NCBI GenBank assembly: GCA_041738165.1
Contig: JBGSQJ010000340.1
Span: 1 to 34,887 of the forward strand
Reading direction: 5' to 3'
Source: Bdellovibrionales bacterium
GTDB lineage: Bacteria > Bdellovibrionota > Bdellovibrionia > Bdellovibrionales > UBA1609
DNA length: 34,887 nt
The translations under genes and the position numbers were made by a program. Below are positions 5,683-29,441 of this stretch, piece by piece. Each line of letters starts with the position of its first letter. Positions within the stretch are counted from its first letter, which is position 1. Under the pieces are notes generated by a model. It was not told the origin of the DNA. It searched no databases and saw nothing but the letters and a program-made list of their open reading frames with translations.

Positions 5683-7406
5683 CTGAGTCCACAAAGGCCA
5701 AAATTCCCAGGCACCTTCGCAAGTTTATAGTCGAACAAAACTACTCGCGCTACACGCCCGAAGATCAAGCGATTTGGCGATTTATTATGAGGCAACTCAT
5801 TCAATATCTCTCCGTGCATGCGCATGACTGCTATCTTGACGGCCTAAAAAGTACGGGCATTTCGCCCGATTCCATTCCAGATATCGATGTCATGGATCAG
5901 CGCCTTGAGGATTTCGGCTGGAGTGCCGTCCCCGTTAGTGGATTTATTCCTCCCGCCGCGTTTATGGAAATGCAAAGCCTAGGGGTGTTGCCAATTGCCA
6001 GCGATTTACGGGCGCTTTCTCACTTGATGTATACACCTGCACCCGACATAGTGCATGAGGCCGCCGGACATGCCCCTATTTTGGTGCACCCCGAGTTTTC
6101 TTCTTACCTGCACCAGTATGGAGAAGTCGCGCGGCGGGCCATCTTGAGCCGAGAAGATTTAGATCAATACGAGGCCATTCGTATTTTAAGTGATGTTAAA
6201 GAAGATCCGAGATCTACAGAGGCCGAAATCCAAGCCGCTGAATTGAAACTCAATGAAGTAAACTCAAAAATGTCTGGAGTTTCTGAGGCCGGGCTGCTTT
6301 CTAGAATGAATTGGTGGACAGCCGAGTATGGCCTTGTCGGAGATCTGAAAAATCCAAAGATTTTTGGAGCTGGACTTCTTTCGTCGGTGGGCGAATCTAG
6401 GCTTTGTCTGAGTGACAAAGTAAAAAAAATTCCACTGACTGTGGATTGCGTCGATGTCGGATACGATATCACCGAGCCTCAACCTCAACTCTTCGTTACA
6501 TCTGATTTTTCACACCTCACGGAGGTCCTCAATCAATTGGCCGAGCGCTTGGCCTTTAAAAAGGGCGGCACATCCGGGCTCGCAACGGCTCTCAAGGCGA
6601 AAACGGTCAATACAGTCATGCTCGATTCTGGACTTCAAGTTTCAGGTCAGCTTGAGTCTTTTTTAAGTTCAGGGTCCACCGTAGAATTTATTCGGTTCAC
6701 TGGTCCGGTACAGCTGAGCTATCAAGATTGTGAGCTCAGCGGCCATGGCACCAAAACTCATGCTGCGGGGTTCTCATCTCCGCTAGGACTTCTCGCAGAC
6801 GGTTCAAGGCCAAGCGACAAGTCATTTAGAAGTGGCGAGCGAATCAGATTGAACTTTCAAAGCGGAATTGCAGTCGATGGCGAAGTGACGGGCGAGATTC
6901 GAAAAAATGGCAAGCTGATTGTGCTGAACCTAAGCAAAGCCACTGTGAAGCGACAAGAACAGTTGCTTTACTCACCCGACTGGGGCCCATTTGATATGGC
7001 CATTGGAGAGAGTGTAAACTCAGTGTTTGCGGGTCCCGCGGACAGGTCTCGCTTCGGAGCAACAGACGAGTTCGTCACGAAACAGGTTCCGCCACGAAAT
7101 TACACCAAAGAGCAGCTATCTCTTCACGATCTTTACCGAAATGTCCGCAGGCTTCGCGACGAGCGGACCACGCTTTCTCAAAGTCAAACTCAAGGTCGGT
7201 TTGACGACTTGGTTGACACCTACTTGAAGATCTCCCAAGACGAGTGGCTTCCCGGCATAGAACTTTTGGAAATAGCAAGTGAGGCCGGACTTTCGGGCGC
7301 CAAATTTGATCTACTAAACCGACAACTATTGCCTGAGAACTTCAAATCGCAATTCGTAAGTGAAGCCATCCGCGATGGTCTCGAGTTGATCAGTCGCACA
7401 AAATGA
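5679..7406 (+). CDS. phhA: Aromatic amino acid (phenylalanine-4-) hydroxylase family protein, long form with a C-terminal extension of about 270 aa
   Basis: The iron-ligand motifs are present: PDIVHEAAGHAPIL (2 His), NWWTAEYGL (Glu) and FGAGLLSSVGES. These lie in the first ~300 aa. The remaining ~270 aa carry no motif I recognise. There are ATGA overlaps with both neighbouring genes. Confidence 0.8.
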   Translation: MTESTKAKIPRHLRKFIVEQNYSRYTPEDQAIWRFIMRQLIQYLSVHAHDCYLDGLKSTGISPDSIPDIDVMDQRLEDFGWSAVPVSGFIPPAAFMEMQSLGVLPIASDLRALSHLMYTPAPDIVHEAAGHAPILVHPEFSSYLHQYGEVARRAILSREDLDQYEAIRILSDVKEDPRSTEAEIQAAELKLNEVNSKMSGVSEAGLLSRMNWWTAEYGLVGDLKNPKIFGAGLLSSVGESRLCLSDKVKKIPLTVDCVDVGYDITEPQPQLFVTSDFSHLTEVLNQLAERLAFKKGGTSGLATALKAKTVNTVMLDSGLQVSGQLESFLSSGSTVEFIRFTGPVQLSYQDCELSGHGTKTHAAGFSSPLGLLADGSRPSDKSFRSGERIRLNFQSGIAVDGEVTGEIRKNGKLIVLNLSKATVKRQEQLLYSPDWGPFDMAIGESVNSVFAGPADRSRFGATDEFVTKQVPPRNYTKEQLSLHDLYRNVRRLRDERTTLSQSQTQGRFDDLVDTYLKISQDEWLPGIELLEIASEAGLSGAKFDLLNRQLLPENFKSQFVSEAIRDGLELISRTK

Positions 7407-8176
7407 AAATACATGTGGTTTTGGTACGATCTGAATATGAGGGCAACGTCGGGTCAAGTGCCCGCTCTGCCGCCAATATGGGCGCCGATTCCCTTATTTT
7501 GATTGCCCCTCAGGTTGATCATCTTGCACACGAATCCAGGCAAATGGCCGCTGGTGCCCAAGAAATGTTGAAGAGCGCCCGAGTGTACTCAGATTGGAAC
7601 AGTTTCTACTCTGCAGAAGGTCAGGGCGTTCGCATCGCCTTTTCACGGCGAGACGGAAAAAGGCGCAAAGCGATCGAGTGGTCTCACGCAGGAACTTCTT
7701 TGATCAATCGCGAGAGCACCGATCACCTTTACCTCATATTTGGGCCCGAAGCGGACGGCTTGGATCACGAAGATTTGGCGTTCGTCAATCTGACCTGCTC
7801 TTTGCCCACATTCGGAAATTTTGCCAGCTTCAATTTGTCTCAAGCCGTCATCGTCGCATTGACGGTGCTTCAACTCCAAACAATGAAATCGTCACCACCT
7901 ACGAATGAAGAAAATCCGCCAGCGCCATTTTATTTTCCAGACGACTTAATTAAGAAATGGCTGACTCAAATTGGATTTGATATTCAAGCTCGCAAAGCCA
8001 GTGCGTATTTGACTCTAAAGCGTCTTTTTTTATTGAATCAACCCACAAAGCACGAAATCAAAGTGCTCGAAGCCACACTTCAACAGACGCTGAGAAAACT
8101 CGATGAAGCCTCATTTGGGCTTTCTTTTGAACAGATTGCTGACCACCGCAGTGATATCGTCAGTGAAGATATCTAA
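7403..8176 (+). CDS. trmJ: SpoU/TrmJ-family tRNA 2'-O-methyltransferase
   Basis: The N-terminus IHVVLVRSEYEGNVGSSARSAANMGADSLILIAP and the later LIFGPEADGL and NLSQAV are SPOUT/TrmJ-like, and there is a C-terminal extension as in TrmJ. Confidence 0.75.
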   Translation: MKIHVVLVRSEYEGNVGSSARSAANMGADSLILIAPQVDHLAHESRQMAAGAQEMLKSARVYSDWNSFYSAEGQGVRIAFSRRDGKRRKAIEWSHAGTSLINRESTDHLYLIFGPEADGLDHEDLAFVNLTCSLPTFGNFASFNLSQAVIVALTVLQLQTMKSSPPTNEENPPAPFYFPDDLIKKWLTQIGFDIQARKASAYLTLKRLFLLNQPTKHEIKVLEATLQQTLRKLDEASFGLSFEQIADHRSDIVSEDI

Positions 8177-10048
8177 TTTTTGGTTTTTACGAGACTCAGC
8201 CGCGCCGCCCTGAATCTCCCGCCGCGCTTCAATGAAAGTCGGGTCAAGCTGAAGGGCCCGCTCGAAAAATGACGGGGCGGTGGCGTCGCCCATTTGACGC
8301 TTCAAAAGTCCCATCGCCATGTAATAGTAAGGAGTGCGGCGATCTTCCGCTGGCAGACTCTCGAGTCCCCTTGAAAATTCATGAAGGCCAGATTGCCCAT
8401 CAAATGATTTGGCTTTCAACGAGGCCCAAACTGTCAATAGATACTGCCTGGATGATGGCATCACCTGTTCGGCTTTGCCGAGCTGCTCAAGAGCGCCCCG
8501 AAAATTCCCCTTTTTGATTAAATCCAATGCCGTCGTCACATAGACACTTGAACGTCTCAGCTTGGTGTCTTGCTCTGTTTTGATTTCTTCAAAGAGCTCC
8601 GCGCGCCGACGCTCGTCGACCATTATGTCTCTGGCTTTGGTCACCAATTCAAAACATTTGGTGCAGAATTCGACCAACTCAGCGGACGAATCCGCAGGTA
8701 GGGCCTTTGGATTGCTCGATCTGACATAATCTTGGTAGATTTTTTCAATAAAAGCGGGTGAAGCCGAATCTGAAGCGCCAAAATATGCGAACACCTGATC
8801 GGGCCGACGATCTTTAAGAGTCTCAAAGACCTTCTTGTATCGATCAAGAGCGGCTTGTTCACGCCCGGCTCGTTTTTCATCTTCGAAAATTAACACCCGC
8901 ATCAGCACGAGGCGATGAATGCAGCGATACACCAAGTCAGCTTTCGTCTCATCTGTCTTTAAACAGGTCGAAATCGACTTTCGATCTTCTACGGCCTTTC
9001 GAAAGTCATTCATTTCAAAATATTCAGGGCTATTGAACACTTGGTTCAAAACGTCGACAAACCCAACAACTCGAAGTGGCGAATCCAATACATCTTTGTA
9101 AAAGCTCCTTAAGTAGTCTAACGCCTTAGACTCATCAAAAATTTCTGAAAGATAGCTCATGAACTCGTACATATCCACAGGGTCCGCGTTGCTCTCTACC
9201 GCCACCTCGCCCAACGCAAAGCTCAAATTGATGGCACCCGACTGACAGATGCTCTTCATATCCGCCAAAATCTGAGCTCGTTGAGCCACCGCCATAGCGT
9301 GGGGGCTGACAAGACCCGCCTCGACAAGATCTGTGAGCACAAATTTCATTTCCGTTTTTTGCTTAAAAGACTTCCAATCATCGCCGTGCAAGAGGCCATT
9401 GGCGATCAAGGCCTCGATGCTTCGCTGCCGAGACTGTTCGGAGTCCAACTCTGCGATTTTTCCATCTTTGAGTTTGGCGCCAAATATTTCTCCCGACTCA
9501 CTTGCAATCGTTAGGTCACCTGACAGACCTACTTCCATAAGAAACGTAAGGATATAGGGGAGATCATAACCCGTAATTCCATCCAGTCGCTCAACGGCTT
9601 TCGCACGCTCGCGAAGACTCGTAATATGGCGAAGTAAAAGCGAATGAACCGTCCACCTTTCGACGCCAATGATATTCTCAAATCCATTTGAAATTGCAGC
9701 CTTGATTTCTTCTAGGTCAAAAGGCTTAGTCAAATAGGCGATCGCTCCGCATTTTCCTTTGGCTTCTTCTGCAAAAGACTTGTCTTTGAAAACTCCACTA
9801 ATCAGAATCACAGGTCCGTCGGCAAACTTCGTTTTGCGCATCTCTTCGACCAGGTCCACGCCGCTCATCTTGGGCAAAAGCACATCGACAATGGCCCCTT
9901 GAATGTATTGGAGTTTTGATAAGCTCAAAGCGTCTGCCGGTCGATTGGCAACCACGGGGCGTAGACCCAAACGTTTGACCACTTCAGATAGCACTTGTGT
10001 CGTGGCTTTGTCGTCATCCACTATAAGCACTTTGGTGACATTACTCAT
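8111..10048 (-). CDS. Response regulator with receiver, PATAN/DUF4388-like and C-terminal TPR domains
   Basis: The receiver (REC) shows KVLIVDDD..., an acceptor Asp in AIVDVLLPKMSG, and a conserved Lys in AYLTKPF. The DUF4388-like segment is GYDLPYILTFLMEVGLSGDLTIASESGEIFGAKLKDGKI...LVEAGLVSPH. The C-terminus has TPR-like helices (YYMAMGLLKRQMGDATAPSFFERALQLDPTFIEA). ATG 10048 is preferred over the TTG at 10051. Confidence 0.8.
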   Translation of the reverse strand: MSNVTKVLIVDDDKATTQVLSEVVKRLGLRPVVANRPADALSLSKLQYIQGAIVDVLLPKMSGVDLVEEMRKTKFADGPVILISGVFKDKSFAEEAKGKCGAIAYLTKPFDLEEIKAAISNGFENIIGVERWTVHSLLLRHITSLRERAKAVERLDGITGYDLPYILTFLMEVGLSGDLTIASESGEIFGAKLKDGKIAELDSEQSRQRSIEALIANGLLHGDDWKSFKQKTEMKFVLTDLVEAGLVSPHAMAVAQRAQILADMKSICQSGAINLSFALGEVAVESNADPVDMYEFMSYLSEIFDESKALDYLRSFYKDVLDSPLRVVGFVDVLNQVFNSPEYFEMNDFRKAVEDRKSISTCLKTDETKADLVYRCIHRLVLMRVLIFEDEKRAGREQAALDRYKKVFETLKDRRPDQVFAYFGASDSASPAFIEKIYQDYVRSSNPKALPADSSAELVEFCTKCFELVTKARDIMVDERRRAELFEEIKTEQDTKLRRSSVYVTTALDLIKKGNFRGALEQLGKAEQVMPSSRQYLLTVWASLKAKSFDGQSGLHEFSRGLESLPAEDRRTPYYYMAMGLLKRQMGDATAPSFFERALQLDPTFIEARREIQGGAAESRKNQKLDIFTDDITAVVSNLFKRKPK

Positions 10049-10095
10049 CAATGTTATATCGGAGTTTTTCAGCTAAAAATCGACTCGACCAGAGA

Positions 10096-10515
10096 CTAGC
10101 TTGCCTGCCCGGGATGATGTTTCTTCCAGGCTTCAGTGATCTTTTTAGTTAGGGTCTCAATATTAAAGGGCTTCACCACATATCCACTGACACCGCACCC
10201 CGCCGCCTCGATAACAGCCCCTTTTTCAGACTCAGTTGTCACTAGCAAAAAGGGCAAGGCTTCAAATTCTGGGAGTGCTCGAACTTGCTTTAAAAAATCA
10301 AGGCCACTTGGACCAGGCATATTCAAATCTGACAAAACCAATCCAACTGCATTTGGAGTTTTAACAAAAAATTTCAATTTTCCCAAAGCCTCAATCGCGT
10401 CCTCAGAGGTGGTGATTTTAGAAAACCCCATCCTCTGAAGCGAGTCGACGACAATTCGACGAATATTGAGTGAGTCATCTACAACCAAAACATGTGTGTC
10501 TTTTCCAAAGCCCAT
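10096..10515 (-). CDS. CheY-like single-domain response regulator
   Basis: Receiver motifs HVLVVDDS, VLSDLNMPGPSG and YVVKPF are present. ATG 10515 is preferred because it forms a TAATG stop/start overlap with the upstream kinase gene. The ORF-track start at 10551 lies inside that gene. Confidence 0.9.
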   Translation of the reverse strand: MGFGKDTHVLVVDDSLNIRRIVVDSLQRMGFSKITTSEDAIEALGKLKFFVKTPNAVGLVLSDLNMPGPSGLDFLKQVRALPEFEALPFLLVTTESEKGAVIEAAGCGVSGYVVKPFNIETLTKKITEAWKKHHPGQAS

Positions 10516-12407
10516 TAAGCACTCCTCAATACTGATTCTATCTGGTTCCAATGGGGCAAGTGAAGATGAATTTTGGTGCCGATGCCCACATTCGATTCAA
10601 TATTAAAAGTGCCTTTCATCTTCAACACTTCGGCGCGCAAAGCATCTAGACCAACGCCACGTCCAGAGTACTCCCCCACCTCAGTTCGAGACGAAAAACC
10701 CGTCCAGGCCACGGCCTGTACCACTTCCGCGTCTGTCAGAGCCGAGATGTCTTTGTCGGGAAATTTTTCACCTAATTTTTCTCTTATGACGGCAGGGTCA
10801 ATACCTCGGCCATTGTCTTCTATCAACAGGGAGAAACCATCATCACTCAGCGTTGCCGTGACCGAGATTCTGCCGGCCTCGGGTTTTTCAGCCCATAAGC
10901 GTTCATCGGGGGTTTCAATTCCGTGATCAACCGCATTTCGAAATGCATGAACCAAGCTTGAGAAAACATCCGAATAAGCGCCTGCCGGCAGTCTTATTTC
11001 ATTGTCATTGATAAGCAAGGGTTCTACTTTTTTTCCTAAGTTTTCACTGACCGACTGCACGAGACTGTCATAGTAAGAAAGTAAACTTTTTAGCTCTACA
11101 TTTAAAAAGATGTCCTCAGCCTTGGACTTGATCGTTTCAGCCCCTTTGACTTTTGAAAGATCGTCAATCCACTCGAGCGCTTGACCCATAGACACTTCAA
11201 TCCGGCGATCTTGCTCACTCTTAGATCTTTCAATAACGCCTTCATTTTTCTTCAAAAAATCATCGTATTCTTTACGAAGAGTCTCAAGTGACACTTTGTA
11301 CTCTTCAAGGGCCGAGGGATCATTGACTCCAGTGCCCTTAAACGGTTCCAAAATTCCTTGTGAAACACGGGTCGCCAAGCGCAAGGGCCGAAGTGAAAAT
11401 ATTCCAGCTTCGCCTTCTATAGTGTGCAAAATTCGAAAGCTTTCCTGAACACTCTCTTGAGTGTCAATGCGAGTCACGAGTTGATTCAATTTCGGAAAGG
11501 TTTCTTCGACCCCAGCTAAAAATCTTGTGAACTGGTTTTTATTTTTAATGTATTTAATGATCATGCTGGCATACTGACGCTCTTCTTCGAGTGCAAGTTG
11601 AGCTTTTCGCTCTTCGGTCTTGTCTGTTGCCACAACCACTACACTGCCAATTTTGTTTGCCTCATCTCGAATGGGGTAATACTCCAGAGGCACATACTTA
11701 TTAGAATCACCTTCATAGGTTTGAGGGCCAAGAGCTTTCATGTCTTCAAATGGCAACATCTCTTGAAATACAGCGTCGATCCATTTTTTAAATGTACCCA
11801 GCTCAGCGTCCGGTACTCCTAATACCTTCCACGCCGTTTGACCTTTAGGAGTCACCGCCAACATCGCCTCGCAAGCCCGAGTGAAGACATCGCTGCAGGC
11901 GCCAGTGGAGTCGAACGTGAAAAACCCCTGTCCCAGTGAGTTCAAGATGGCCTGAAGGGTTTGATTGACTCTACGTAATTCGAGAGTTCTTTCTTCAACT
12001 AACTTTTCGAGATTTTTTGCATATTCTTCTTTTTGAGCCAGCTCAGATCGATATTTTGAGTGAAGGGCTTCCTCAAGGCTCACATCTCTTACAAAAAAGG
12101 CCCACGTGACTTCCGTCATAGGGCGAATTGCCAATTGCAGGCGCCCAACCCTCTCGTCCTTGGTCAATTTAAATCCGGTTTCGATAAATGGCGTTGGAGC
12201 ATCCCGGCCCGCAGATTTTGCATCGAACGGAAAAATACCTGGCTCATCAATTTGAATAAGGTCAGACAACAGCGCCTTTCCCATGATCCTTCTTGCGGAA
12301 GTTCCACAAAAAACGGCCGCCGCGTCATTGCAATACTCGACCTTACCGTCGGGACCGACAATAAATGCAGCATCTAAAATAGAATCAAAAACCGAGTAAT
12401 CAACCAT
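10515..12407 (-). CDS. PAS-PAS-Hpt(P1)-dimerisation-HATPase(P4) CheA-like histidine kinase lacking a CheW-like P5 domain
   Basis: The Hpt His lies in SFRILHTIEGEAGIFSL. The CheA-type catalytic core is LGKKVEPLLINDNEIRLP...LVHAFRNAVDHGIETPDERL...LLIEDNGRGID...SGRGVGLDALR...GTKIHLHLP. The protein ends about 12 aa after that, so there is no room for a P5 domain. The N-terminal ~270 aa are PAS-like (two modules). Confidence 0.8.
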   Translation of the reverse strand: MVDYSVFDSILDAAFIVGPDGKVEYCNDAAAVFCGTSARRIMGKALLSDLIQIDEPGIFPFDAKSAGRDAPTPFIETGFKLTKDERVGRLQLAIRPMTEVTWAFFVRDVSLEEALHSKYRSELAQKEEYAKNLEKLVEERTLELRRVNQTLQAILNSLGQGFFTFDSTGACSDVFTRACEAMLAVTPKGQTAWKVLGVPDAELGTFKKWIDAVFQEMLPFEDMKALGPQTYEGDSNKYVPLEYYPIRDEANKIGSVVVVATDKTEERKAQLALEEERQYASMIIKYIKNKNQFTRFLAGVEETFPKLNQLVTRIDTQESVQESFRILHTIEGEAGIFSLRPLRLATRVSQGILEPFKGTGVNDPSALEEYKVSLETLRKEYDDFLKKNEGVIERSKSEQDRRIEVSMGQALEWIDDLSKVKGAETIKSKAEDIFLNVELKSLLSYYDSLVQSVSENLGKKVEPLLINDNEIRLPAGAYSDVFSSLVHAFRNAVDHGIETPDERLWAEKPEAGRISVTATLSDDGFSLLIEDNGRGIDPAVIREKLGEKFPDKDISALTDAEVVQAVAWTGFSSRTEVGEYSGRGVGLDALRAEVLKMKGTFNIESNVGIGTKIHLHLPHWNQIESVLRSA

Positions 12408-12873
12408 TTTTTAAAAACTTAAAGTATTTAGCTTCAATGACATCAATTTCCATGACCTCACCCGAATCGTCCTTAACTTCAGACGGCGGCGTGACCTCCG
12501 AACCATTGAACTCTTTGCCATTCATAAAAAGGACCATTCGCTCGTCACCCGAGGCATCCGAATAGTAAGGCACATAAAAACTCTCAATGATCGTGCCGTC
12601 AGGCAGAAAACCCGCAACCATATTGATTTGGTCAACGATGATCTTTGGGCAGTGCCTGACAGAAAGCTTCAAGCTCGTTGGAAAGGCCTTTATCCATTTG
12701 ATCCACTCTCGAATCCCAACTGAATTGATGGCTGTCACACCTTCTAAATCGAGATTGACTTCGGCCGCAGAGCCCAAGTTCGGCGCAACAAAACTCGCAT
12801 CCTCATCGATCCCGCCCTTTACAAAGATGACGGCGATATTGCCTTCTGGCTTAACTTCTATCGTTAGTGCCAT
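12400..12873 (-). CDS. STAS-domain protein (anti-sigma-factor-antagonist-like) with a C-terminal extension
   Basis: VNLDLEGVTAINSVGIREW aligns with SpoIIAA LNLEDLSFMDSSGLGVI, and the Ser aligned to the phosphorylated Ser58 is kept. AAGGAGG lies 7 nt upstream of the ATG. The stop overlaps the next gene's start by 8 nt (ATGGTTGA). Confidence 0.7.
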   Translation of the reverse strand: MALTIEVKPEGNIAVIFVKGGIDEDASFVAPNLGSAAEVNLDLEGVTAINSVGIREWIKWIKAFPTSLKLSVRHCPKIIVDQINMVAGFLPDGTIIESFYVPYYSDASGDERMVLFMNGKEFNGSEVTPPSEVKDDSGEVMEIDVIEAKYFKFLKNG

Positions 12874-13684
12874 TTGATTTTCCTCCTTCTATTTGAAACC
12901 AATGTATACTTTTGCCCATTTCTAATCTTTTTCTCTGACTCATTTTTCGCGGAAACACACAAACCGATGTGGTCTGAGATTGAGAGCTGACCCCCAAATA
13001 CAAACTCAAGCATGCATTGAGTATCATAAAGCTGCCTATGCCAGCTCCGCCAGTTCCAAAGTTCATGGTCTGGGCGGGCCCGCACAAAACGGTTTTCTGA
13101 ATTTTCTTTAAATAGCGCGGAATATTCAGCGCGCCAAATGGGTCGGTGCAAGCCACCGCAATTCGGTCTGCACTCTGACCTATTGAGAGCTGAGCCCGTC
13201 CGGCACGCTCTAATGTCACACGGTTGCCAACGCGCTCCACACCAGGACGTGTGACTTCATCCAAAAATGCAACGGGAGCGTTGTAAATAGCATTTGTAAA
13301 CAGTTCGTCGGTCACCTGCACAATGTCGTCTATCGTACTGGCCGTACACCCAATGTCCTGCAGACTCTGGCGCGTTGCCTCTAAGACCTCTGTCTTGGCA
13401 ATCGAGTCGTTGAACTCCAAATTGAGCACCGTGCAATCGAATTCGGATTTTGGCGACGGCGAGTTTGGATTCAGCACTGTTGAAAGTGGGAATTTCAAAT
13501 ACTGCTCTGGCGACGTCAAAATTAAATTTGCGGAGGCTCTCTCATCAACAATTTCGAATCGATTGGTCTGGCACACGTGGTGAACACCTTCAGTCAAGGC
13601 CCAAGTCAACACATCTTCAGGCGACATATCCGCGCCCTCAACGATCGGGCTTTGTAGAGATTTTGCTGCTCCACCCGCGCTCAT
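12851..13684 (-). CDS. GHKL-type ATP-binding protein, RsbW/SpoIIAB-like Ser kinase candidate, N-terminally extended
   Basis: There is an N-box-like VTDELFTNAIYNAP, a G1-like ACTDPFGAL and a G2-like FGTGGAGIGSF. At 277 aa it is longer than typical RsbW/SpoIIAB proteins. The ATG follows the upstream TAG by 1 nt. Confidence 0.55.
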   Translation of the reverse strand: MSAGGAAKSLQSPIVEGADMSPEDVLTWALTEGVHHVCQTNRFEIVDERASANLILTSPEQYLKFPLSTVLNPNSPSPKSEFDCTVLNLEFNDSIAKTEVLEATRQSLQDIGCTASTIDDIVQVTDELFTNAIYNAPVAFLDEVTRPGVERVGNRVTLERAGRAQLSIGQSADRIAVACTDPFGALNIPRYLKKIQKTVLCGPAQTMNFGTGGAGIGSFMILNACLSLYLGVSSQSQTTSVCVFPRKMSQRKRLEMGKSIHWFQIEGGKSNGTNDRS

Positions 13685-13685
13685 T

Positions 13686-15518
13686 CTATGCCACTTTCCT
13701 ATTCATTTCACACATCACCATGGTGACGTCATCGATGAGCTCCGTGCCTTCTCGAAATGTGTTGATCTTGTCGACCATAAACTTGATTCGACTTGTTTCG
13801 TCCTCAAGTTTGTTGGCGCTCTCGAGCAAATTTCTTAAGAAGATTCGCTCACCCCACTTGTTGCCCGCTTGGTCTTGAACATCGACAATTCCATCTGTGT
13901 AAAAGAACAACATGTCGCCTTGTTGAATTTGAAGATGAGTCTCTTCATATTTGAAGTCTGGTCGATCTCCAAGTCTTGGCCCATTGACTTCGTTGAGCGG
14001 AACGAGATCTTTTTTCTTCATTGTTTCACCAGATTTTCGCATCAAAAATGGCGGATCATGACTGGCGCAGGCATAGGTTAAAACATTCGTATCTAGATCG
14101 ATAGCCGCAATAAAAAAGGTCATCATTATCTGACCCTTTGACGTTTGATAAATCGCGCTATTGAGTACGGTCAAGGCGTGGCCGGGACCCACGCCCGGCA
14201 TTGTCTCAATCACGGCGGCAGCAGATCTTGCCGCACTAGTGATCAATGCGGCTGGCGCACCGTGGCCCGTAGCATCTCCAATCCACAAAAACACTTTGTT
14301 TCCGATTTTCGAGTAGCTCCACCAATCCCCTCCGCACTCACTTGCGGGCTCAAAATGACCTTCAATTTTGTATTCACCAAATTCGGCGGTAGACGCTGGA
14401 AAAAGTGTTTCTTGCACGGTCTTGACTGTTGAGAGCTCACTGGCCATACGTGCCTTTTCGGCGGTCTCAGTCATCAATCTCGACACTTCAGCGGCCATCC
14501 AGTTGAAACTCTCGGCAAGACCGCCCACTTCATCACTTGAATTGGACCGAACGTTGACCTGAAAATCCCCTTGACCAATTTTCTTCGTGGCTTCAAATAG
14601 CTCTCGAATGGTTGAAGTCAATTGATTCGAGGCAAAAACGCTGATCAACAATGTGGTCGCGAGTAGCGCGGCGAAAAACAAAAGTGACTTTGACACAAGT
14701 ACGTCAACGGCTTTGAGAGCTTTGCTTTTGTCCACTTGAGAAATCACGAACAAATCACCAAGTCCCACTTGGGCGTAAGACACCAAGTAGGAACGGGCGT
14801 CTGTTAACTTGAGCTCTCCTGTTCCTTCGCTGATTTTGTCATTAAAGACTTTGGCGAGCAGGGGTACGTCGCGGGTTTCGGTGTCAGATGCGCCGATCAC
14901 CACACTCGCCGACTTTGAGTACACAATGCTTTTGTACATGCCCACCATGGCGAACGCGTTTCTGAGATCCGACGCGCGATACAATGAGAGTATCAGCATG
15001 TGGTGCGTGTCTGTCGCCTCGCCCAAGCGATAGGCCAAAAGCACTTGATCCGACGTGCTCTCGACACTCAAAATAGCCGCGCCATTTTGGACAGCTGGAT
15101 TTTGAATTTGTGCAATCATTTTGGAGTCGGCAATGAGCTTGGCCGAAGCCTCATCTCTCTCAAGCTTTCCAAGTGTCACATAAAGCCCATTTTTATCTTT
15201 TCGAACTAAGGTCACCGCCAACAGGCGATCATTCTTTTCAAAAAGCCTTTGGGCAATTGGGTTGAACGCTCCGCCCGAAAAATTAAAATTTTCGACAATG
15301 GAGCGCAGAGAGCCATAGGCTGAGTGCATTTCCATTCGAGTTTGGGTTGCGAGCGAGCGCGAAACAGTTGCACTAGAATCGAAGACGTACGCCACTTTGT
15401 CTTGTTGAAACAAATCTGTGGCCATAACCAAATACAGCCCAAGCGTGATCAAAGGCAAACTCACAAGCAAGATCAACAACTTGTATCTCAACGACAAACG
15501 TACTTTGAAATGCTTCAT
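13686..15518 (-). CDS. Membrane sensor HAMP-PP2C (SpoIIE/RsbU-like) Ser phosphatase
   Basis: Two hydrophobic segments (LLILLVSLPLITLGLYLV and LLFFAALLATTLLISVFA) flank an extracytoplasmic region of about 250 aa. The HAMP motif is IGQGDFQVNVRSNSSDEVGGLAESFNWM. The PP2C motifs are ECGGDWWSY and IGDATGHGAPAAL. ATG 15518 (MKHFKV...) is preferred; the TTG at 15548 is possible. Confidence 0.85.
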   Translation of the reverse strand: MKHFKVRLSLRYKLLILLVSLPLITLGLYLVMATDLFQQDKVAYVFDSSATVSRSLATQTRMEMHSAYGSLRSIVENFNFSGGAFNPIAQRLFEKNDRLLAVTLVRKDKNGLYVTLGKLERDEASAKLIADSKMIAQIQNPAVQNGAAILSVESTSDQVLLAYRLGEATDTHHMLILSLYRASDLRNAFAMVGMYKSIVYSKSASVVIGASDTETRDVPLLAKVFNDKISEGTGELKLTDARSYLVSYAQVGLGDLFVISQVDKSKALKAVDVLVSKSLLFFAALLATTLLISVFASNQLTSTIRELFEATKKIGQGDFQVNVRSNSSDEVGGLAESFNWMAAEVSRLMTETAEKARMASELSTVKTVQETLFPASTAEFGEYKIEGHFEPASECGGDWWSYSKIGNKVFLWIGDATGHGAPAALITSAARSAAAVIETMPGVGPGHALTVLNSAIYQTSKGQIMMTFFIAAIDLDTNVLTYACASHDPPFLMRKSGETMKKKDLVPLNEVNGPRLGDRPDFKYEETHLQIQQGDMLFFYTDGIVDVQDQAGNKWGERIFLRNLLESANKLEDETSRIKFMVDKINTFREGTELIDDVTMVMCEMNRKVA

Positions 15519-15581
15519 ACAGGTACTGTATCGGAGCGCGACACTCAATCATTCAGTCATTTATATAATAAAAATAGTCAC

Positions 15582-16697
15582 TTAAGACCATAGGCGAGCC
15601 GATGCGAAGACATTGTCCCCGACGGCGCGATAGCGAATAGATTTGGCCACCGGAGCTTGGTCTAGACTTTTTAAGTTTAGAGACTTAGACCACGACTGGC
15701 CCTGCCCTAAAATCTGGTTACCCAAGAAAAGATAAAGCCGATCAACCAAAGAATTGTTCAAAAATTCTCCTATCGTAAACGCGCCCGCTTCCACATAAAC
15801 ACTAAAAATAGAGTTCTCGAGTAGAATTTTATGAAGGTCAGATGAATTGAACACGCCCTGCAGTTGAGGAAGAACCGCCAGCCGAACCCCCTTTGGAGCT
15901 TTAAGGCCCGATTTTGCTGTGATCAGTAGAATCGACTCAGGAGGCCGAATTTCTTGAAATCGAAACTTCAAAAAATTCTCAAGAATTCTACCCTTGGGAT
16001 CGAGAACAACAAGATTTTGAGGCTTGTCTTTGAAGCGATCAAATCGACAATTGAGCTGTGGGTTGTCGGCCATGATCGTCCCCGAACCGGTCAACACCGC
16101 ATCGTAACCACCCCGAAGCCATTGCCCCATCTTTCGGGCCCGAGGGTTGGTGATCCACTGGCTTTCACCATTGCCCAATGCCGTTTGCCCATCTAACGAT
16201 GTCGCCACTTTACAGGCGTAAAAAGGTCGCCCCTTTCTTTGATTGACTAAAAAGGCTTCGCAAATCTCTTCGAGTTCGAGCTGAAGTGATTTGAATTTTT
16301 CAACTTGAATTCCAGCCGCCTTAAGAATTTCACAGCCCTTGCCAGAGACCTGAGGATTAGGATCAGTAAGTCCGTATGTGACTTTGCCAATCGATGTTTT
16401 AGCCAGGGCCTTCGCGCAAGACGGCGTACGCCCTTCATGAGCACAGGGCTCAAGTGTGACAATCACATGGGCGCCTTTGAGTCTTGAAGAATCTTTGATT
16501 TGCCCCAAAGCCATGGCCTCGGCGTGCGCTTCTCCACACTTGGCATGATAGCCCTCAGACAAAACGCGGCCGCTTGAGTCTAATATCACACAACCAACCA
16601 TCGGGTTCGGAGACACAAAGCCAAAACCCTGCCTAGCCAAGCGAATAGCTCTGGCCATGGCCTGCTCGACTGTGATCGGACCCACTACGTCTGCCAA
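15582..16697 (-). CDS. ribD: Bifunctional riboflavin biosynthesis deaminase/reductase RibD
   Basis: The deaminase zinc motifs HAEAMAL and TLEPCAHEGRTPSCA are followed by a reductase half (KVATSLDGQTAL...). The start is uncertain: TTG 16697, GTG 16685 or ATG 16658. Confidence 0.9.
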   Translation of the reverse strand: MADVVGPITVEQAMARAIRLARQGFGFVSPNPMVGCVILDSSGRVLSEGYHAKCGEAHAEAMALGQIKDSSRLKGAHVIVTLEPCAHEGRTPSCAKALAKTSIGKVTYGLTDPNPQVSGKGCEILKAAGIQVEKFKSLQLELEEICEAFLVNQRKGRPFYACKVATSLDGQTALGNGESQWITNPRARKMGQWLRGGYDAVLTGSGTIMADNPQLNCRFDRFKDKPQNLVVLDPKGRILENFLKFRFQEIRPPESILLITAKSGLKAPKGVRLAVLPQLQGVFNSSDLHKILLENSIFSVYVEAGAFTIGEFLNNSLVDRLYLFLGNQILGQGQSWSKSLNLKSLDQAPVAKSIRYRAVGDNVFASARLWS

Positions 16698-17788
16698 GAC
16701 TTCCAGTACTCTTTGAGTTCAATGCCGTGCGAATCAGGGTCGGCCATTAAGGGCGCACGGGTGTCGATCATGACCGCGATTTCATTGGTGTGAGTTGTTT
16801 GATCAACTGATTTCACAGCTTTCGGATGTGGCCCGTGCGGTAAGCCTGCTGGGTGAAAGCTCATCATGCCCGGATGCAAATTGTCGCGCGAGAAAAAATC
16901 TCCGGCGTGATAGAACAAAACTTCATCGTAGTCGATGTTCTGATGATAAAAAGGCACCTTGAGGGCATCCTTGTCACTTTCTAAGGGCCGGGGCAAAAAC
17001 GTGCAGATCACAAACTCTCGAGCCACGAAAGTCGTGTGTGCACTTGGCGGAAGGTGAGCCCGATGACTCATCAGCGGCATCATGTTGTCGACATGAAGGG
17101 TATAAGGGTAGAGGTCGCCCTTCCAGCCAATGGTGTCGTAGTAATGTTCGGCGTATTCGAACTTAGTGACTTCGTCCAGGCGCTTGACCACGATCGTCTT
17201 AACCTTGGAGCCGCTTTCTTGAACACGTGCCATTTGCTTTTCTAAATCAGGCCGCCCTAAAGATGCGGGGTCATATATCGCATGACGCCCCACTAGCCCC
17301 CGATCGGGCTGTTCATAGTGACTCGACCTGTTTTCAACGACCAAAAACACGCTCGATGAGTTCGGAATAATACTATGAGTGATGCATTTGGGGACAATCA
17401 AATACTCGCCAGCTTTGAATCCCAGCCAGCCATACTCGGTCCAGACCTCACCGTCGCCCGAGTGACAAAAGTAGAGCAAATCGCCATCACTATTGCGAAA
17501 TCCAGTTTGTGAGTGAGCCGAGTTTGGCTTCATCACCATTTGAGAAATCGTGACGTCGTTATTGAAGAGTATTCGGCGCGTGCCCTCGCCGTCAGACCAT
17601 GGCACCAAATCGTACATCCGGGGGAGCAAAGGGCCTGTGATCTTGGTCCATCTTGTGCTGGGCTGTTTTTTAATCAAATGCGAAACAGGCCCAAAGAAAC
17701 CCTTTAATCCCTGCTCTTCTTCAAAATAACCTTCGGGAATCGCCTTGTGGGCTTGGGTGGTGTAACGACCTTGAAAATAAAGACTCAT
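16685..17788 (-). CDS. hmgA: Homogentisate 1,2-dioxygenase (short form)
   Basis: The cupin-type motifs FYHQNIDYDEVLFYHAGDFFSR and MSFHPAGLPHGPHP are typical of HmgA. The start has a 4-nt overlap with the hppD stop. Confidence 0.85.
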   Translation of the reverse strand: MSLYFQGRYTTQAHKAIPEGYFEEEQGLKGFFGPVSHLIKKQPSTRWTKITGPLLPRMYDLVPWSDGEGTRRILFNNDVTISQMVMKPNSAHSQTGFRNSDGDLLYFCHSGDGEVWTEYGWLGFKAGEYLIVPKCITHSIIPNSSSVFLVVENRSSHYEQPDRGLVGRHAIYDPASLGRPDLEKQMARVQESGSKVKTIVVKRLDEVTKFEYAEHYYDTIGWKGDLYPYTLHVDNMMPLMSHRAHLPPSAHTTFVAREFVICTFLPRPLESDKDALKVPFYHQNIDYDEVLFYHAGDFFSRDNLHPGMMSFHPAGLPHGPHPKAVKSVDQTTHTNEIAVMIDTRAPLMADPDSHGIELKEYWKSWQT

Positions 17789-18828
17789 GTTAAAAAACCT
17801 CTACGTTTTTGATCTCGTTCAATCGCATCAAACAGCGCTTGAAAGTTTCCTTCACCAAACCCTTGGTGATTTTTTCGCTGAATGATTTCGAAAAAAATTG
17901 GCCCAATAAGATTTTGCGTGAAGATTTGTAGCAAGTAGCCCTCATCATCGCCATCAACAAGCACGTGAGATTGCTGAACGGCTTTGAGATCTTCTTTGAC
18001 ATTGGGAACTCGGCCCGGAATCGCCTCGTAGTAAGTGTTTGGAGGAGCATCTAAAAACTTAATCCCATTCTCTCGAAGCGCCGTCACCGACTTGAGAATG
18101 TCTGCGGTCAACAGGGCCAGATGTTGAATCCCAGAACCCTTGTACTCATCTAAGTACTCTTGAATTTGAGATTTTGATTCGGTGGGCTCGTTGATCGGAA
18201 TGGTGATTTTGCCGCAGGGCGAGCGCATCACTTTCGAGACCAAGCCGGTCTTTTCGCCTTTGATATCAAAATGCCGAACCTCAGAAAAGTTAAAGATCGT
18301 TTTATAGAAATCACACCACTTCAGCATGTCTCCGGCTGGCACATTGTTGGTGAGGTGATCAATCACCGTCATGCCAAAGCCTTTGGGGAATTTTTCGGAA
18401 CCTAAAAATTCAAAGTCGTCATCAAAATGAGATTCACCGCGGTAGCGATCAACAAAATAAACGGCCGAGTCGCCTATTCCTGCGATAGCAGGAAAACTGT
18501 GGCTCGCTCCATCATTCTTGAGTGCCAAGGATTTCGCTCCTCGCTCAACAGCCAAGCTATGTGCCTTGCCTGCGTCTTTGACCCTAAAACCCGTCGCACA
18601 AATCGATGGGCCATGGGCTTTGGCAAATTCGGCGGCGAAAGTGCCAGGCTCTTCGTTGATGATAAAGTTCACCTGATTTTGGCGATACAAAGTCACGGCT
18701 TTTTTTCGATGCCTCGCCACCTTCGTAAAACCCATTTGTTTAAAAAGTTTTTCTAGGGTCGCGGCATCTGGCGCCGCGTATTCGACAAACTCAATGCCAT
18801 CGAGTCCAAGCGGATTTTCAGTAGACAC
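17785..18828 (-). CDS. hppD: 4-hydroxyphenylpyruvate dioxygenase
   Basis: GIQHLALLT, FFEIIQRKNHQGFGEGNFQALFDAIERDQ and the VOC-fold N-terminal half are present. The start is a GTG with GGGAGGTG 4 nt upstream. Confidence 0.92.
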   Translation of the reverse strand: MSTENPLGLDGIEFVEYAAPDAATLEKLFKQMGFTKVARHRKKAVTLYRQNQVNFIINEEPGTFAAEFAKAHGPSICATGFRVKDAGKAHSLAVERGAKSLALKNDGASHSFPAIAGIGDSAVYFVDRYRGESHFDDDFEFLGSEKFPKGFGMTVIDHLTNNVPAGDMLKWCDFYKTIFNFSEVRHFDIKGEKTGLVSKVMRSPCGKITIPINEPTESKSQIQEYLDEYKGSGIQHLALLTADILKSVTALRENGIKFLDAPPNTYYEAIPGRVPNVKEDLKAVQQSHVLVDGDDEGYLLQIFTQNLIGPIFFEIIQRKNHQGFGEGNFQALFDAIERDQKRRGFLT

Positions 18829-18942
18829 AATTCACCTCCCTGACCCGGTCAAAGAACCACGATTCCCCGTTGGTGTAAAGACTGGTGACAGGTTCAAATT
18901 GAAAGGGTAGATCTGTTGGGATAGGCTTTTAAGGAGATTTAC

Positions 18943-19317
18943 ATGGCAAGTCAATTCACCGATTTTAGCAGCCAAACCGCGAATCCCGAAGATCCAAGCG
19001 TTATGGATATTGACCCGAATGAATTGTGGCAAAACCGTGAAAAAGTGGCCATCGTGGACGTCAGGCGCCCCGATTAATACACCGGCGAACTCGGGCACGT
19101 GCCCGGCTCGAAGCATATTGTTTTGGACACCCTGCCTGGCCGCATAGCCGAGCTACCCAAAGATAAAACCGTGGTTTTTGTATGCCGCAGCGGCGCTAGG
19201 TCGGGGCGCGCAGCCAGTTTGGCTCTTGAGTCTGGGTTCACAAGCGTCTTCAACATGAAGGGCGGCATGCTACTCTGGAACGAGCGCAAGCTCGAAGTTG
19301 AAGGGCGAAACGAATAA
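18943..19317 (+). pseudogene. Single-domain rhodanese (sulfurtransferase) interrupted by one in-frame TAA at 19075..19077
   Basis: AAGGAG lies 6 nt upstream of ATG 18943. The same frame reads MASQF...EKVAIVDVRRPD*YTGELGHVPGSKHIV...VVFVCRSGARSGRAA...MKGGMLLW. The stop sits where rhodanese domains have the Glu of the D-E-Y/F motif, so GAA to TAA is a single-base change. The active-site loop CRSGARS is intact downstream. Confidence 0.75.
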
Positions 19318-19318
19318 G

Positions 19319-20692
19319 ATGGGCTCCGTTTTTGTCAATCGCACGCTGAATCTCAAACGCATTCGCTACATTGGCGTCGATATGGATCACACTTTGGTTC
19401 GCTATAAAAGTGCGAACTTTGAAGAGTTGGCCCACAAAACCATGCTCAAAAAATTAGTGGATGAACTTCAATACCCTAAGTCCATACTCAATTTGGATTT
19501 CAAGTATGACCGAGCCATTCGTGGCCTCGTCATTGATAAGGCCATGGGCAATGTTTTAAAGCTCAGCCGCTATTCGGCAATTCGCGTTTCTTATCATGGG
19601 CTAAAACCCATCGACTATCGTGATCAAACTCGCCTCTACAAAAGCGTGTACATTGATCTTCGTGACCCTAATTATCTTTCGATTGATACAGCCTTTTCGA
19701 TCGCGTTTGCCGGATTGTTTATGCAGCTTGTGGACCAAAAAGATTCGGCCTTGAGCCAAGAGCTGCCTTCTTATGCAAAAATTTCGGACGATCTAAACAA
19801 GGTTCTTGATCGCGCCCATCGCGATGGAAGCCTGAAAAACGAAGTTCGCGCCCACTTAGATAAATACATTCTAAAAGATCCGAGCGTGGTCGAAGGCCTA
19901 GAGCGATTTAAAAAACACGGCAAGAAAATTTTTGTCGCCACCAATTCGGATTTTCTTTACTCCAAGCTGCTACTCGATTACACGATCGATCCGTTTTTGA
20001 AAGATCATTCGTCATGGTCGGAGCTCTTTGATTTTGTCATCACTTTGTCCAACAAACCTCGGTTCTTCATCGACAACCAAAGGTTTATGAAAATCGATCA
20101 GCAAACCGGCTGGATGACCAATATGAACGAAAAGTTGACACCCGGAATCTACCAGGGTGGTTCGGCCAATGTGTTCACTCATGACCTTGAAGTCGCACCT
20201 GACGAAATATTGTACATTGGCGATCACATCTATGGCGATATTTTGCGATTGAAAAAAGATTGCGCCTGGCGAACGGCGCTCGTTGTAGAGGAAATCGAAG
20301 ATGAAATCCAAAAAGAACGACAGGCGTCGCCTCTTACTGAAAAAATCAATGATTTGATGGCGCGAAAACTTCCCCTCGAGGCCAAGCTCGACGATCTGAT
20401 TTCTGAACAGATCGAAACCAATTCGAACAAAAACGAAGCGGCCATACGCAAACTCTTAAACGAGATTGGTGATATCGATAAAAAGCTATCCCCATTAATT
20501 CAACAACAGCAGCAGACTTTTAATCCTCTATGGGGAGAAGTCATGCGGGCAGGAATCGAAGAGAGCTACTTTGCCTACCAAGTGGACCGATTCGCTTGTA
20601 TTTACATGGCCAAGTTGTCAGAGCTTTTGGCCGAATCGCCCCGACACTACTTCAGAGCGCCAAGAAGACCACTGGCGCACGACTTTGCCTAG
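19319..20692 (+). CDS. HAD-superfamily 5'-nucleotidase of the cytosolic cN-II (HAD-IG) type
   Basis: VFVNRTLNLKRIRYIGVDMDHTLVRY matches the cN-II N-terminal DMDxT motif region. Later come FVATNSDF and IGDHIYGDIL, then a long helical tail. ATG 19319 lies 1 nt after the rhodanese TAA. Confidence 0.8.
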   Translation: MGSVFVNRTLNLKRIRYIGVDMDHTLVRYKSANFEELAHKTMLKKLVDELQYPKSILNLDFKYDRAIRGLVIDKAMGNVLKLSRYSAIRVSYHGLKPIDYRDQTRLYKSVYIDLRDPNYLSIDTAFSIAFAGLFMQLVDQKDSALSQELPSYAKISDDLNKVLDRAHRDGSLKNEVRAHLDKYILKDPSVVEGLERFKKHGKKIFVATNSDFLYSKLLLDYTIDPFLKDHSSWSELFDFVITLSNKPRFFIDNQRFMKIDQQTGWMTNMNEKLTPGIYQGGSANVFTHDLEVAPDEILYIGDHIYGDILRLKKDCAWRTALVVEEIEDEIQKERQASPLTEKINDLMARKLPLEAKLDDLISEQIETNSNKNEAAIRKLLNEIGDIDKKLSPLIQQQQQTFNPLWGEVMRAGIEESYFAYQVDRFACIYMAKLSELLAESPRHYFRAPRRPLAHDFA

Positions 20693-29301: not shown

Positions 29302-29397
29302 GGCCGGGTCCCACGCATTAGTGGCTCTTGCCAACCCCGCCAGGTCCGGAAGGAAGCAACGGTAACAAGAGCTCTAGGTGATGTGGGGTGCCCGGTC
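29302..29397 (+). ncRNA. ffs: Signal recognition particle RNA (small, 4.5S type)
   Basis: The conserved domain IV sequence CCAGGTCCGGAAGGAAGCAAC is at 29340..29360. It is closed by a long imperfect helix (GGCCGGGTCCCACGCATTAGTGGCTCTTG paired with CAAGAGCTCTAGGTGATGTGGGGTGCCCGGTC). It occupies the classic position immediately upstream of dnaX. The ends are approximate, within a few nt. Confidence 0.85.
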
Positions 29398-29441
29398 ACC
29401 CATTTAATGAGCGCGAAATTTTCAATCGCGAGGTGCATAAA

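Follow-up and report, generated by a model that had tools for sequence, protein, structure and literature searches.

A putative serine-phosphorylation switch without a sigma factor, encoded beside a CheA-type kinase and two response regulators in Bdellovibrionota

Gene content and layout of the cluster

The window analysed here is a stretch of 34,887 nt from a Bdellovibrionales bacterium (GCA_041738165.1, contig JBGSQJ010000340.1), whose minus strand carries, at 8111..15548, six open reading frames (ORFs) of one orientation that fill the region in the order g1-g2-g3-g4-g5-g6 (Table 1). Their products are predicted to be a sensor phosphatase, a serine kinase and a STAS protein, followed by a CheA-type kinase and two response regulators, and the cluster, found so far solely in Bdellovibrionota, may join serine phosphorylation to a His-Asp phosphorelay. 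The gene content and all junctions given in a preliminary description of this DNA are present in the sequence, and the tight coupling that it proposed is borne out. As read in the sequence, g1 and g2 are joined by TAG-A-ATG (13688..13682), g2 and g3 overlap by 23 nt (12851..12873), g3 and g4 meet in ATGGTTGA (12400..12407) and g4 and g5 in TAATG (10513..10517), and a gap of ~45 nt precedes g6. The AAGGAGG of g3, previously placed at 12851..12873, actually lies at 12882..12888, just outside the g2/g3 overlap. The start of g1 is most likely ATG 15518 rather than TTG 15548, because ortholog N-termini and a conserved CCGATA box fit the former; g5 starts at ATG 10515, and g6 at ATG 10048 or TTG 10051. 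Rfam and tRNA scans gave no match inside the cluster.

Table 1. Positions of the cluster genes and of sequence elements within them or upstream of them, numbered along the window
Feature	Position	Strand	Basis
g1, membrane sensor phosphatase, HAMP and PP2C; ortholog of Bd2404	13686..15518	-	Pfam, motifs, hydropathy
g2, predicted RsbW/SpoIIAB-type GHKL serine kinase	12851..13684	-	AlphaFold2 model, Foldseek, invariant motifs
g3, predicted STAS phosphoprotein with C-terminal extension; ortholog of Bd2403	12400..12873	-	AlphaFold2 model, Foldseek
g4, soluble protein with PAS, coiled coil, PAS, Hpt and CheA-type P4; family of Bd2406	10515..12407	-	Pfam, NCBIfam, PDB match
g5, single-domain CheY-like receiver (DD 13-14, D63, K115)	10096..10515	-	Pfam REC 1e-20
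g6, REC, PATAN-like region with MshEN-like stretch, J-like, TPR; ortholog of Bd2402	8111..10048	-	Pfam and ortholog comparison
CCGATA, candidate FliA (sigma-28) -10 element, 16 nt before g1 ATG	15529..15534	-	Conserved box
CCGATA, candidate second FliA-type promoter in the g5-g6 gap, 14 nt before g6 start	10057..10062	-	Conserved box
AAGGAGG, Shine-Dalgarno of g3, within g2 3' end, 8 nt before g3 ATG	12882..12888	-	Sequence
Ser51 codon of g3 (motif INSVG)	12721..12723	-	Sequence, modelled secondary structure
His328 codon of g4 (HTIEG), predicted phospho-accepting histidine of Hpt	11424..11426	-	Motif

The putative phosphatase g1 matches the Pfam SpoIIE/PP2C (8.5e-34) and HAMP (1e-8) models and has an extracytoplasmic domain of ~245 aa between two hydrophobic segments, followed by HAMP and PP2C, whose metal-binding motifs are intact (DATGHG at 415, TDG at 541, DDVT at 596). 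Among NCBIfam models it comes closest to SiaA, whose cut-off of 700 bits lies far above the 72 reached; given this score and the absence of a GGDEF gene from the cluster, membership in the SiaABCD system was rejected.

The GHKL and STAS assignments proposed earlier for g2 and g3 are not supported by sequence profiles and find their support at the level of fold (AlphaFold/Foldseek). Neither protein has a significant match in Pfam (E<=10), in NCBIfam or, by hmmsearch with family profiles, among PDB sequences: the best Pfam match of g2, HATPase_c_2, reaches a non-significant E=0.022 and 15 bits against 27.4, and 4 of 26 g3 members give matches to Pfam STAS that fall short of the model, at best with E=0.031. 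A cluster look-up for NCBI names likewise returned none for g2 or g3, and only 'response regulator' for a g6 ortholog. The C-terminal ~165 aa of g2 form the GHKL part, in which E127, N131, D181xxG184 and G212GAGxG217 are invariant among 22 homologs, in an N box DELFTNAIYNAP, a G1 box DxxGxL and a G2 box GGAGxG. The alignment-based AlphaFold2 model of g2 (pLDDT 88) finds SpoIIAB, RsbW, SiaB and UsfX as its best PDB matches in Foldseek, all with probability 1.0. The extra N-terminal domain of ~85 aa is probably the remnant of a receiver domain; relatives of g2 bear a full receiver-like domain in this place, which looks degenerate (Pfam covers half of it, E=6e-4). An exhaustive HMMER search recovered 3103 clusters of this family at 50% identity, so that g2 belongs to a large family without Pfam annotation.

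The model of g3 (pLDDT 85) has the anti-sigma antagonists 4hyl, SpoIIAA, RsbV and RsfB as its top Foldseek matches, and the SpoIIAA and RsbV structures among them come from the same complexes that g2 matches. In this model, Ser51 stands at the N-terminus of helix 51-62, directly after the third strand (38-49), a position that we take to be that of SpoIIAA Ser58; in SpoIIAA and RsbV this position is the phosphorylated one. The surrounding motif, INS[CV]GIREW, is kept in 79 of the 80 related loci described below, and among the 120 best of 778 matches g3 is 61-85% identical, so that within the cluster it is surpassed in conservation by g5 alone (78-87% among close relatives). Its C-terminal half (window 12400-12600) contains an extension that looks like a former zinc ribbon whose cysteines were lost: YxCxxC...CxxC is kept in distant g3 homologs and kinase-STAS fusions (L081:8850-9323; P0022, P0337, P0344, P0349), the complete four-cysteine motif occurs in none of the 79 Bdellovibrionota loci checked of the 80, and the sequence around it is almost invariant there.

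In g4, Pfam detects PAS, HATPase_c and Hpt, the last marginally in the window (24.7 bits against a cut-off of 24.6) and at 41 bits in the ortholog of Bdellovibrio HCB-162 (locus L073); the motif H-T-[ILVM]-[KE]-G around the predicted phospho-accepting histidine is present in 51 of 65 g4 orthologs. The P4 domain matches the Thermotoga maritima CheA P4 structure at 1.2e-24, and CheA_Halo is matched at 1.3e-38 over profile positions 327-545. No P2 is seen, and there is no Pfam match to H-kinase_dim (P3) or CheW (P5). The orthologs end 41-50 residues after the G2 box in all 55 of the 65 in which the box was found. Because P3 and P5 are undetectable and the protein ends shortly after the G2 box, g4 is predicted to be a soluble CheA-type kinase unable to dock to chemoreceptor arrays, and the scanned ORFs of the window include no MCP, CheW, CheR or CheB. 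The term CheA-like, as first applied to g4, therefore holds for P1 and P4, not for P3 and P5/CheW. The single-domain receiver g5 scores 100.8 bits with NCBIfam CheY, under the cut-off of 189.

The last gene, g6, had been described as REC-DUF4388-TPR, of which the receiver is solid (D55, K108), the TPR matches are sub-threshold, and DUF4388 (PF14332) is undetected in the window even at E<=10. DUF4388 is found weakly in 10 of 30 g6 orthologs (best E=0.005) and passes the Pfam threshold in the L073 ortholog, at 26.2 against 25 bits. The order of REC and then PATAN is the reverse of that in PatA. Within the PATAN-like region lies an MshEN-like helical stretch (~165-262), and a J-like domain follows at ~415-485, in which HPD has decayed to SSNPK in the window and is kept in some orthologs (Pfam DnaJ J-domain in 13 of 30, best 2e-6). 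The published relaxed MshEN motif, two tandem 24-residue copies of RLGxxhhxxGhhxxxxLxxxLxxQ, is matched by none of the 30 close g6 orthologs, for which reason an MshEN domain was rejected for the window protein; the core hhxxGhhx4hx6Q is kept in 28 of the 30, and the window g6 has only this core. The Bdellovibrio ortholog, judged by eye, has a nearly complete tandem motif with 1-2 departures per copy. The 3' end of g6 overlaps a convergent SpoU-family methylase gene (7403-8176) by 66 nt (8111-8176), and several relatives show an overlap of this kind too.

Conservation, fusions and promoters

In a search covering one genome per species, g3 was found in 186 species genomes; the locus counts in this text come from the best 80 of the 186 g3 loci, which were collected via g3 and in which start codons were assigned heuristically. 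All 80 belong to Bdellovibrionales or other Bdellovibrionota, and in nearly all of them, even where rearranged, the partner-switch and kinase/response-regulator genes occur together, which supports the functional linkage first suggested from the window. In arrangement A, that of the window, the order is hppD-hmgA-ribD-g1-g2-g3-g4-g5-g6, with g1-g2-g3-g4 inline in at least 27 of the 80 loci, and arrangement B, in at least 10 loci, is the same without g1. Arrangement C characterises the Bdellovibrio genus, four cultured strains among them: on one side are g5 and g4, a divergent FecR-domain gene lies between, and g1-g3-g6 follow, so that the kinase g4 is on the opposite strand, no more than 6 kb separate g4 and g5 from the rest, and g6 comes directly after g3. 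Here the metabolic neighbours are missing, yet the signalling genes, apart from g2, still lie together, though differently ordered, which argues for function over inherited synteny. The idea that a histidine kinase takes the slot of the sigma factor does not fit these g2-less PP2C-STAS-REC/PATAN/TPR loci with the kinase on the other strand; it is g3, and not the GHKL kinase, that is the invariant hub. The junction from g3 to g4 is the tightest of all: among 41 loci it measures -8 nt in 16 and -1 nt in 9, is an overlap in 25, and never exceeds 16 nt. A distant locus (L081) also keeps this junction, with g2/g3 beside g4.

A seventh conserved gene, absent from the window, is oriented divergently to g1 in members of the Bdellovibrio genus and some close relatives (L073:5841-8009 and 37 other loci). 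Its product, of 722-1100 aa with FecR and Ig/Y_Y_Y-like domains, is Bd2405 in B. bacteriovorus. In the window lineage this gene was lost and ribD abuts g1, and at an unrelated locus (L159) a FecR-domain gene also precedes the PP2C-kinase fusion described below. That this neighbour might be an anti-sigma factor with an extracytoplasmic function (ECF) sigma partner was considered and rejected: the protein is 722 aa long, has Ig-like domains as well and carries its FecR domain close to the N-terminus, and no sigma gene is adjacent.

Gene fusions bear on how the first three genes relate. In four independent proteins, a g2-type kinase and a g3-type STAS domain are parts of one chain. In a single metagenomic protein, dCache-HAMP-GAF-PP2C is joined to a g2-type module, which brings together PP2C, a receiver-like domain and GHKL; a FecR-domain gene stands before it and a g3-type gene after it. 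In another lineage, in which the kinase has a receiver-like N-terminus, a g3-type gene lies directly downstream in 39 of 80 metagenomic loci. Because of these fusions and of the g3-type genes adjacent to g2-type genes, g1, g2 and g3 are held to belong together, as a putative phospho-switch triad. The g2/g3 cassette is also seen with other outputs, as in P0330, a kinase fused to PAS-GGDEF, on a JGI contig carrying P0021, where it adjoins an FHA-sigma-54 activator, and at L094:3137-7468, where it is divergent from a REC-GGDEF-EAL gene. In one Bdellovibrio metagenome-assembled genome (L025:8777-9926), two g3 paralogs stand in tandem with a g2-like gene on the opposite strand ~2 kb off, and the other cluster genes were undetected at this locus.

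No sigma factor was found by Pfam among the window ORFs of at least 119 aa (except three) and in one Bdellovibrio locus, nor by phmmer with RpoE, SigF and SigB in the full ORF sets of the window and the 80 loci (+-10 kb), a search of limited sensitivity. The initial observation that the cluster has no sigma factor thus extends to the whole 34.9-kb window and to +-10 kb around the related loci. By contrast, the notion of one six-gene operon gives way to probably two transcription units, g1-g5 and g6, because CCGATA boxes precede g1 and g6 and not g4 or g5. In upstream regions that are otherwise unalignable, a box [G/T]CCGATA[A/T] is conserved. It precedes g1 in 19 of 56 loci: almost every close relative has it 13-17 nt ahead of the start, and three occurrences that are more distant complete the count. 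For g6 the figure is 39 of 67 loci, drawn from all three arrangements; the usual place is -14 to -22, two copies lie at -26/-27 and a single one at -62. No such box stands before g4 (0 of 41 inline loci) or before g5 (0 of 56). The background frequency of CCGATA is 1.6% per 83-nt stretch, and the window holds eight sites, two of which are the g1 and g6 boxes. The attack-phase FliA consensus of B. bacteriovorus is TTAAG-N16-CCGATA, mapped in 92 of 140 attack-phase promoters; at the g1 and g6 boxes the -35 match is poor. As the box ends ~8 nt before the start codon and no Shine-Dalgarno is present at g1 or g6, near-leaderless transcripts are suggested for both. A generic sigma-70 and terminator scan of 7400..19400 was uninformative, with fewer sites than in shuffled controls. 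A FliA-like box, TCCGATAA, also lies at 2812-2819, 12 nt before a 612-aa SelO-like ORF (2832-4670), which may be another near-leaderless attack-phase gene.

On both flanks of the cluster lie genes related to tyrosine catabolism: upstream (16685-18828) hppD and a homogentisate-dioxygenase-like gene, and downstream (5679-7406) a gene for a 575-aa biopterin-hydroxylase-like protein. This flanking synteny is kept across Pseudobdellovibrionaceae, and nothing points to a functional link.

Correspondence with Bd2402-Bd2406 of B. bacteriovorus

On the basis of primer, promoter and coordinate matches, Bd2402-Bd2406 of B. bacteriovorus HD100 are assigned as a rearranged ortholog of the cluster. Four internal bd2406 primers map colinearly into g4 of arrangement-C loci, in the right orientation and with no more than 3 mismatches, and their translations DSMGDK, KKYRAE, GMDAIK and EVPYIT stand at the matching g4 positions. 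In the 2019 RomR study, Bd2406 was called a homologue of CheA composed of PAS, HPT and HATPase_c domains; the study also reported that bd2406 carries a stop codon at position 306, just before HPT, in HD100 and is intact in 109J and Tiberius, and that Bd2406(1-305) binds RomR in a two-hybrid assay and forms subpolar foci; a role as the ancestral RomR kinase has been proposed for Bd2406. Among the attack-phase promoters tabulated in Karunker 2013 is a start site at 2312134 for the operon Bd2405-2406, with a FliA motif. Bd2405 has 722 aa, the same length as the L073 FecR-domain protein, and its promoter sequence shares 43 of 51 positions with the L073 region.

For g3, the correspondence comes from a host-independent 109J isolate with two Sanger-verified missense mutations in 'hypothetical protein Bd2403'. 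These mutations (HD100 2309751 and 2309974) are in frame solely on the minus strand, 74 codons apart, and fall, when coordinates are projected from the Bd2405 start, within 1 nt of T69 (ACG) and G143 (GGG) of the L073 g3; from these projected coordinates, Bd2403 is equated with g3, Bd2404 with g1 and Bd2402 with g6. The changes are T>P in IKWMGT and G>E in DEEGNEMEMD, and Bd2403 is the sole gene mutated twice among the 19 mutations of the isolate; its authors deemed them unlinked to host independence. Bd2402 is, according to a paper citing Rotem 2016, an MshEN-containing response regulator that binds cyclic di-GMP (c-di-GMP) tightly. The HD100 locus differs from the window in that it is without g2, has the extra FecR-domain gene and carries the premature stop in bd2406.

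Literature searches on Bdellovibrio with partner switching, STAS, RsbU or PP2C returned no description of the cluster, and no paper found naming these locus tags connects the genes or recognises the PP2C/STAS pair. By these searches, the cluster has not been described as one system, as had been supposed from the window, although three of its genes have been studied singly; for Bd2406, Bd2402 and the Bd2405-2406 promoter, each the subject of separate work, the supposition fails.

Elsewhere in the window, at 32006-32596 and directly after recR, lies a gene for a 196-aa Arf/Ras-type small GTPase, probably MglA, which is of interest because the Bd2406 family contacts RomR, an MglA partner. A small signal recognition particle (SRP) RNA gene (29302-29400, Rfam 69 bits) overlaps the listed dnaX GTG start at 29388, and the true dnaX start probably lies further downstream.

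A proposed circuit and its relation to known systems

Drawing on the folds, catalytic motifs, conservation, fusions, promoter footprint and Bd2402-Bd2406 orthology set out above, we infer the protein-protein contacts, the direction of information flow and the cellular output as follows. The envelope-spanning HAMP-PP2C protein g1 and the RsbW/SpoIIAB-type kinase g2 would set the phosphorylation state of g3 at Ser51, and g3, rather than the kinase, would be the output of the switch, one of its states binding g2 and the other a partner encoded in the cluster. The likeliest candidate for this partner is the P5-less CheA-type g4, whose gene is translationally coupled to that of g3; an alternative is g6, which might contact g3 directly because in the Bdellovibrio form it follows g3 and g2 is absent. 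By acting in this way, g3 would shift the sharing of phosphoryl groups between g5, a CheY-like probable sink, and g6, which may also integrate c-di-GMP, and g3 could thus be regarded as a phospho-switchable version of rhizobial CheS. This reading, a serine-phosphorylation switch without a sigma factor, wired to a His-Asp phosphorelay that is tuned by the state of the STAS protein, stands in our judgement at about even chances. The RomR contact, c-di-GMP binding, the PATAN and TPR parts of g6 and the FliA boxes point to control of the pole and of motility in the attack phase: expression would probably occur in motile attack-phase cells from FliA-type promoters, and output would probably go to the cell pole and the motility machinery. 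A fuller version is decidedly speculative, and we think it improbable as a whole, namely that a phospho-switchable STAS protein replaces the CheW-receptor coupling of a P5-less CheA-type kinase, that the HAMP-PP2C protein, perhaps together with the FecR protein, reads an envelope signal, and that Ser51 alters His-Asp signalling to a c-di-GMP-binding REC-PATAN-TPR regulator and to a RomR/MglA pole hub, the whole forming a circuit that senses contact with prey or surfaces in the attack phase.

Several observations weigh against the proposed circuit. Within +-10 kb, g2 is absent in at least 21 loci of the Bdellovibrio genus, and g1 is absent in at least 10 other loci, so either unlinked enzymes run the switch there or g3 has a role independent of phosphorylation; in arrangement C, moreover, g3 is not adjacent to g4. 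The invariance of g3 is in part ascertainment, because the loci were collected through g3. Deletion of bd2406 in HD100 gave no predation phenotype, though the allele was already truncated. For the window g6, c-di-GMP binding is uncertain, because only the core of the MshEN motif is kept. Finally, CheS is not known to be phosphorylated, and the likeness of g3 to it is one of fold and layout.

Other readings of the same genes were considered. One is a classical partner switch whose target lies elsewhere, in which g2, or g3 in the manner of HsbA-FlgM, sequesters a distal sigma or anti-sigma factor, the FliA/FlgM pair that drives the attack-phase programme being the obvious candidate, and in which the kinase and response-regulator genes are a separate system sharing a regulon. 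The models of g2 and g3 are closest to genuine anti-sigma/antagonist pairs, sigma targets can be unlinked to the switch genes, as for Chlamydia Rsb and HsbA-FlgM, and the cluster bears FliA-type boxes, FliA being the global attack-phase regulator of B. bacteriovorus. The same box is, however, carried by about two thirds of attack-phase promoters and is unspecific to the cluster, no sigma-like ORF lies near any of the 80 loci, the linkage of g1/g3 to g4, g5 and g6 survives rearrangement with conserved start-stop overlaps between g3 and g4, and g2 is dispensable in many genomes, although an anti-sigma factor would be an essential part; we regard a distal target as unlikely, yet worth keeping in view.

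Information might also flow in reverse, as in HptB-HsbR-HsbA, RsbK-RsbY and SypE, with the phosphorelay as input and the partner switch as output, so that phosphorylated g5 or g6 controls g1 or g2 and g3 acts on another target. This is somewhat less likely still: although the full receiver-like N-terminal domain of g2 relatives, the single-chain PP2C/receiver-like/GHKL fusion, which resembles HsbR and SypE, and the PAS sensor domains of g4 itself would all suit it, the receiver-like domains look degenerate, the g2 of the window keeps a truncated remnant without the region for the phospho-acceptor, and its g1 has no receiver and an extracytoplasmic sensor of its own with HAMP. The least probable account, which we think rather doubtful, holds that two unrelated signalling modules are adjacent through inherited synteny, with no functional connection. 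Among close relatives the whole neighbourhood (hppD, hmgA, ribD, spoU) is syntenic, so that adjacency is weak evidence there, and g6 probably has its own promoter; against this account stand the start-stop overlaps that bridge both supposed modules, the Bdellovibrio genus, which lost the metabolic neighbours and kept the signalling genes except g2 in a new order, and the distant L081, which keeps g2/g3 next to g4.

If the proposed circuit is right, the cluster would add a case in which a switch acts on a histidine kinase or its response regulator, and would join serine phosphorylation, His-Asp transfer, c-di-GMP and FliA control in one testable circuit of a predator. It gives genomic context to three orphans, namely Bd2406, the attack-phase operon Bd2405-2406 and Bd2402, and it delineates two large families without Pfam annotation, a GHKL kinase and a STAS partner with a zinc-ribbon-derived tail, a pair that in other lineages appears as a movable cassette fused to or beside GGDEF, PP2C and sigma-54-activator genes.

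In textbook accounts, partner switching controls sigma factors; outputs of other kinds are known in no more than a handful of cases. With RsbU/V/W-SigB and SpoIIE/AA/AB-SigF the cluster shares a PP2C phosphatase and, as predicted from fold, a serine kinase of GHKL type plus a STAS protein whose serine stands where helix 2 begins, and the predicted folds of g2 and g3 best match the solved kinase-antagonist complexes of these systems. Unlike them, it has no sigma factor inside or nearby, its g2 and g3 are too diverged for the Pfam HATPase_c_2 and STAS models and have an extra N-terminal and an extra C-terminal domain, respectively, and the kinase gene is missing from many related loci.

The closest precedent is CheS-CheA. 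In Sinorhizobium meliloti and Agrobacterium, CheS consists of STAS alone; it binds CheA, tightens the contact of CheA with the sink CheY1 100 times and sharpens the CheY2 response. As in the cluster, a STAS gene there stands beside a CheA-type kinase serving two receivers. CheS, however, belongs to a complete chemotaxis operon that also encodes receptors, CheW, CheR and CheB, and is not known to have a kinase and a phosphatase of its own, whereas the cluster has a predicted dedicated kinase and phosphatase for its STAS protein.

Partner-switch parts are likewise joined to two-component signalling in Pseudomonas HptB-HsbR-HsbA and Vibrio fischeri SypE-SypA. In SypE-SypA, as proposed here, the STAS protein is the output with non-sigma partners, and HsbA too is a STAS output with non-sigma partners. 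In the HsbR and SypE systems, by contrast, a receiver is fused to the PP2C and the kinase and the relay is the input, whereas the cluster has a membrane-sensor phosphatase without a receiver, with the relay genes downstream. SiaABCD of Pseudomonas aeruginosa and HenR/All4160 of Anabaena resemble the cluster in that a HAMP-PP2C sensor and a kinase control a small phosphoprotein acting directly on a non-sigma target; that target is a diguanylate cyclase or a polysaccharide enzyme, and SiaC (DUF1987) is not a STAS protein of the g3 type.

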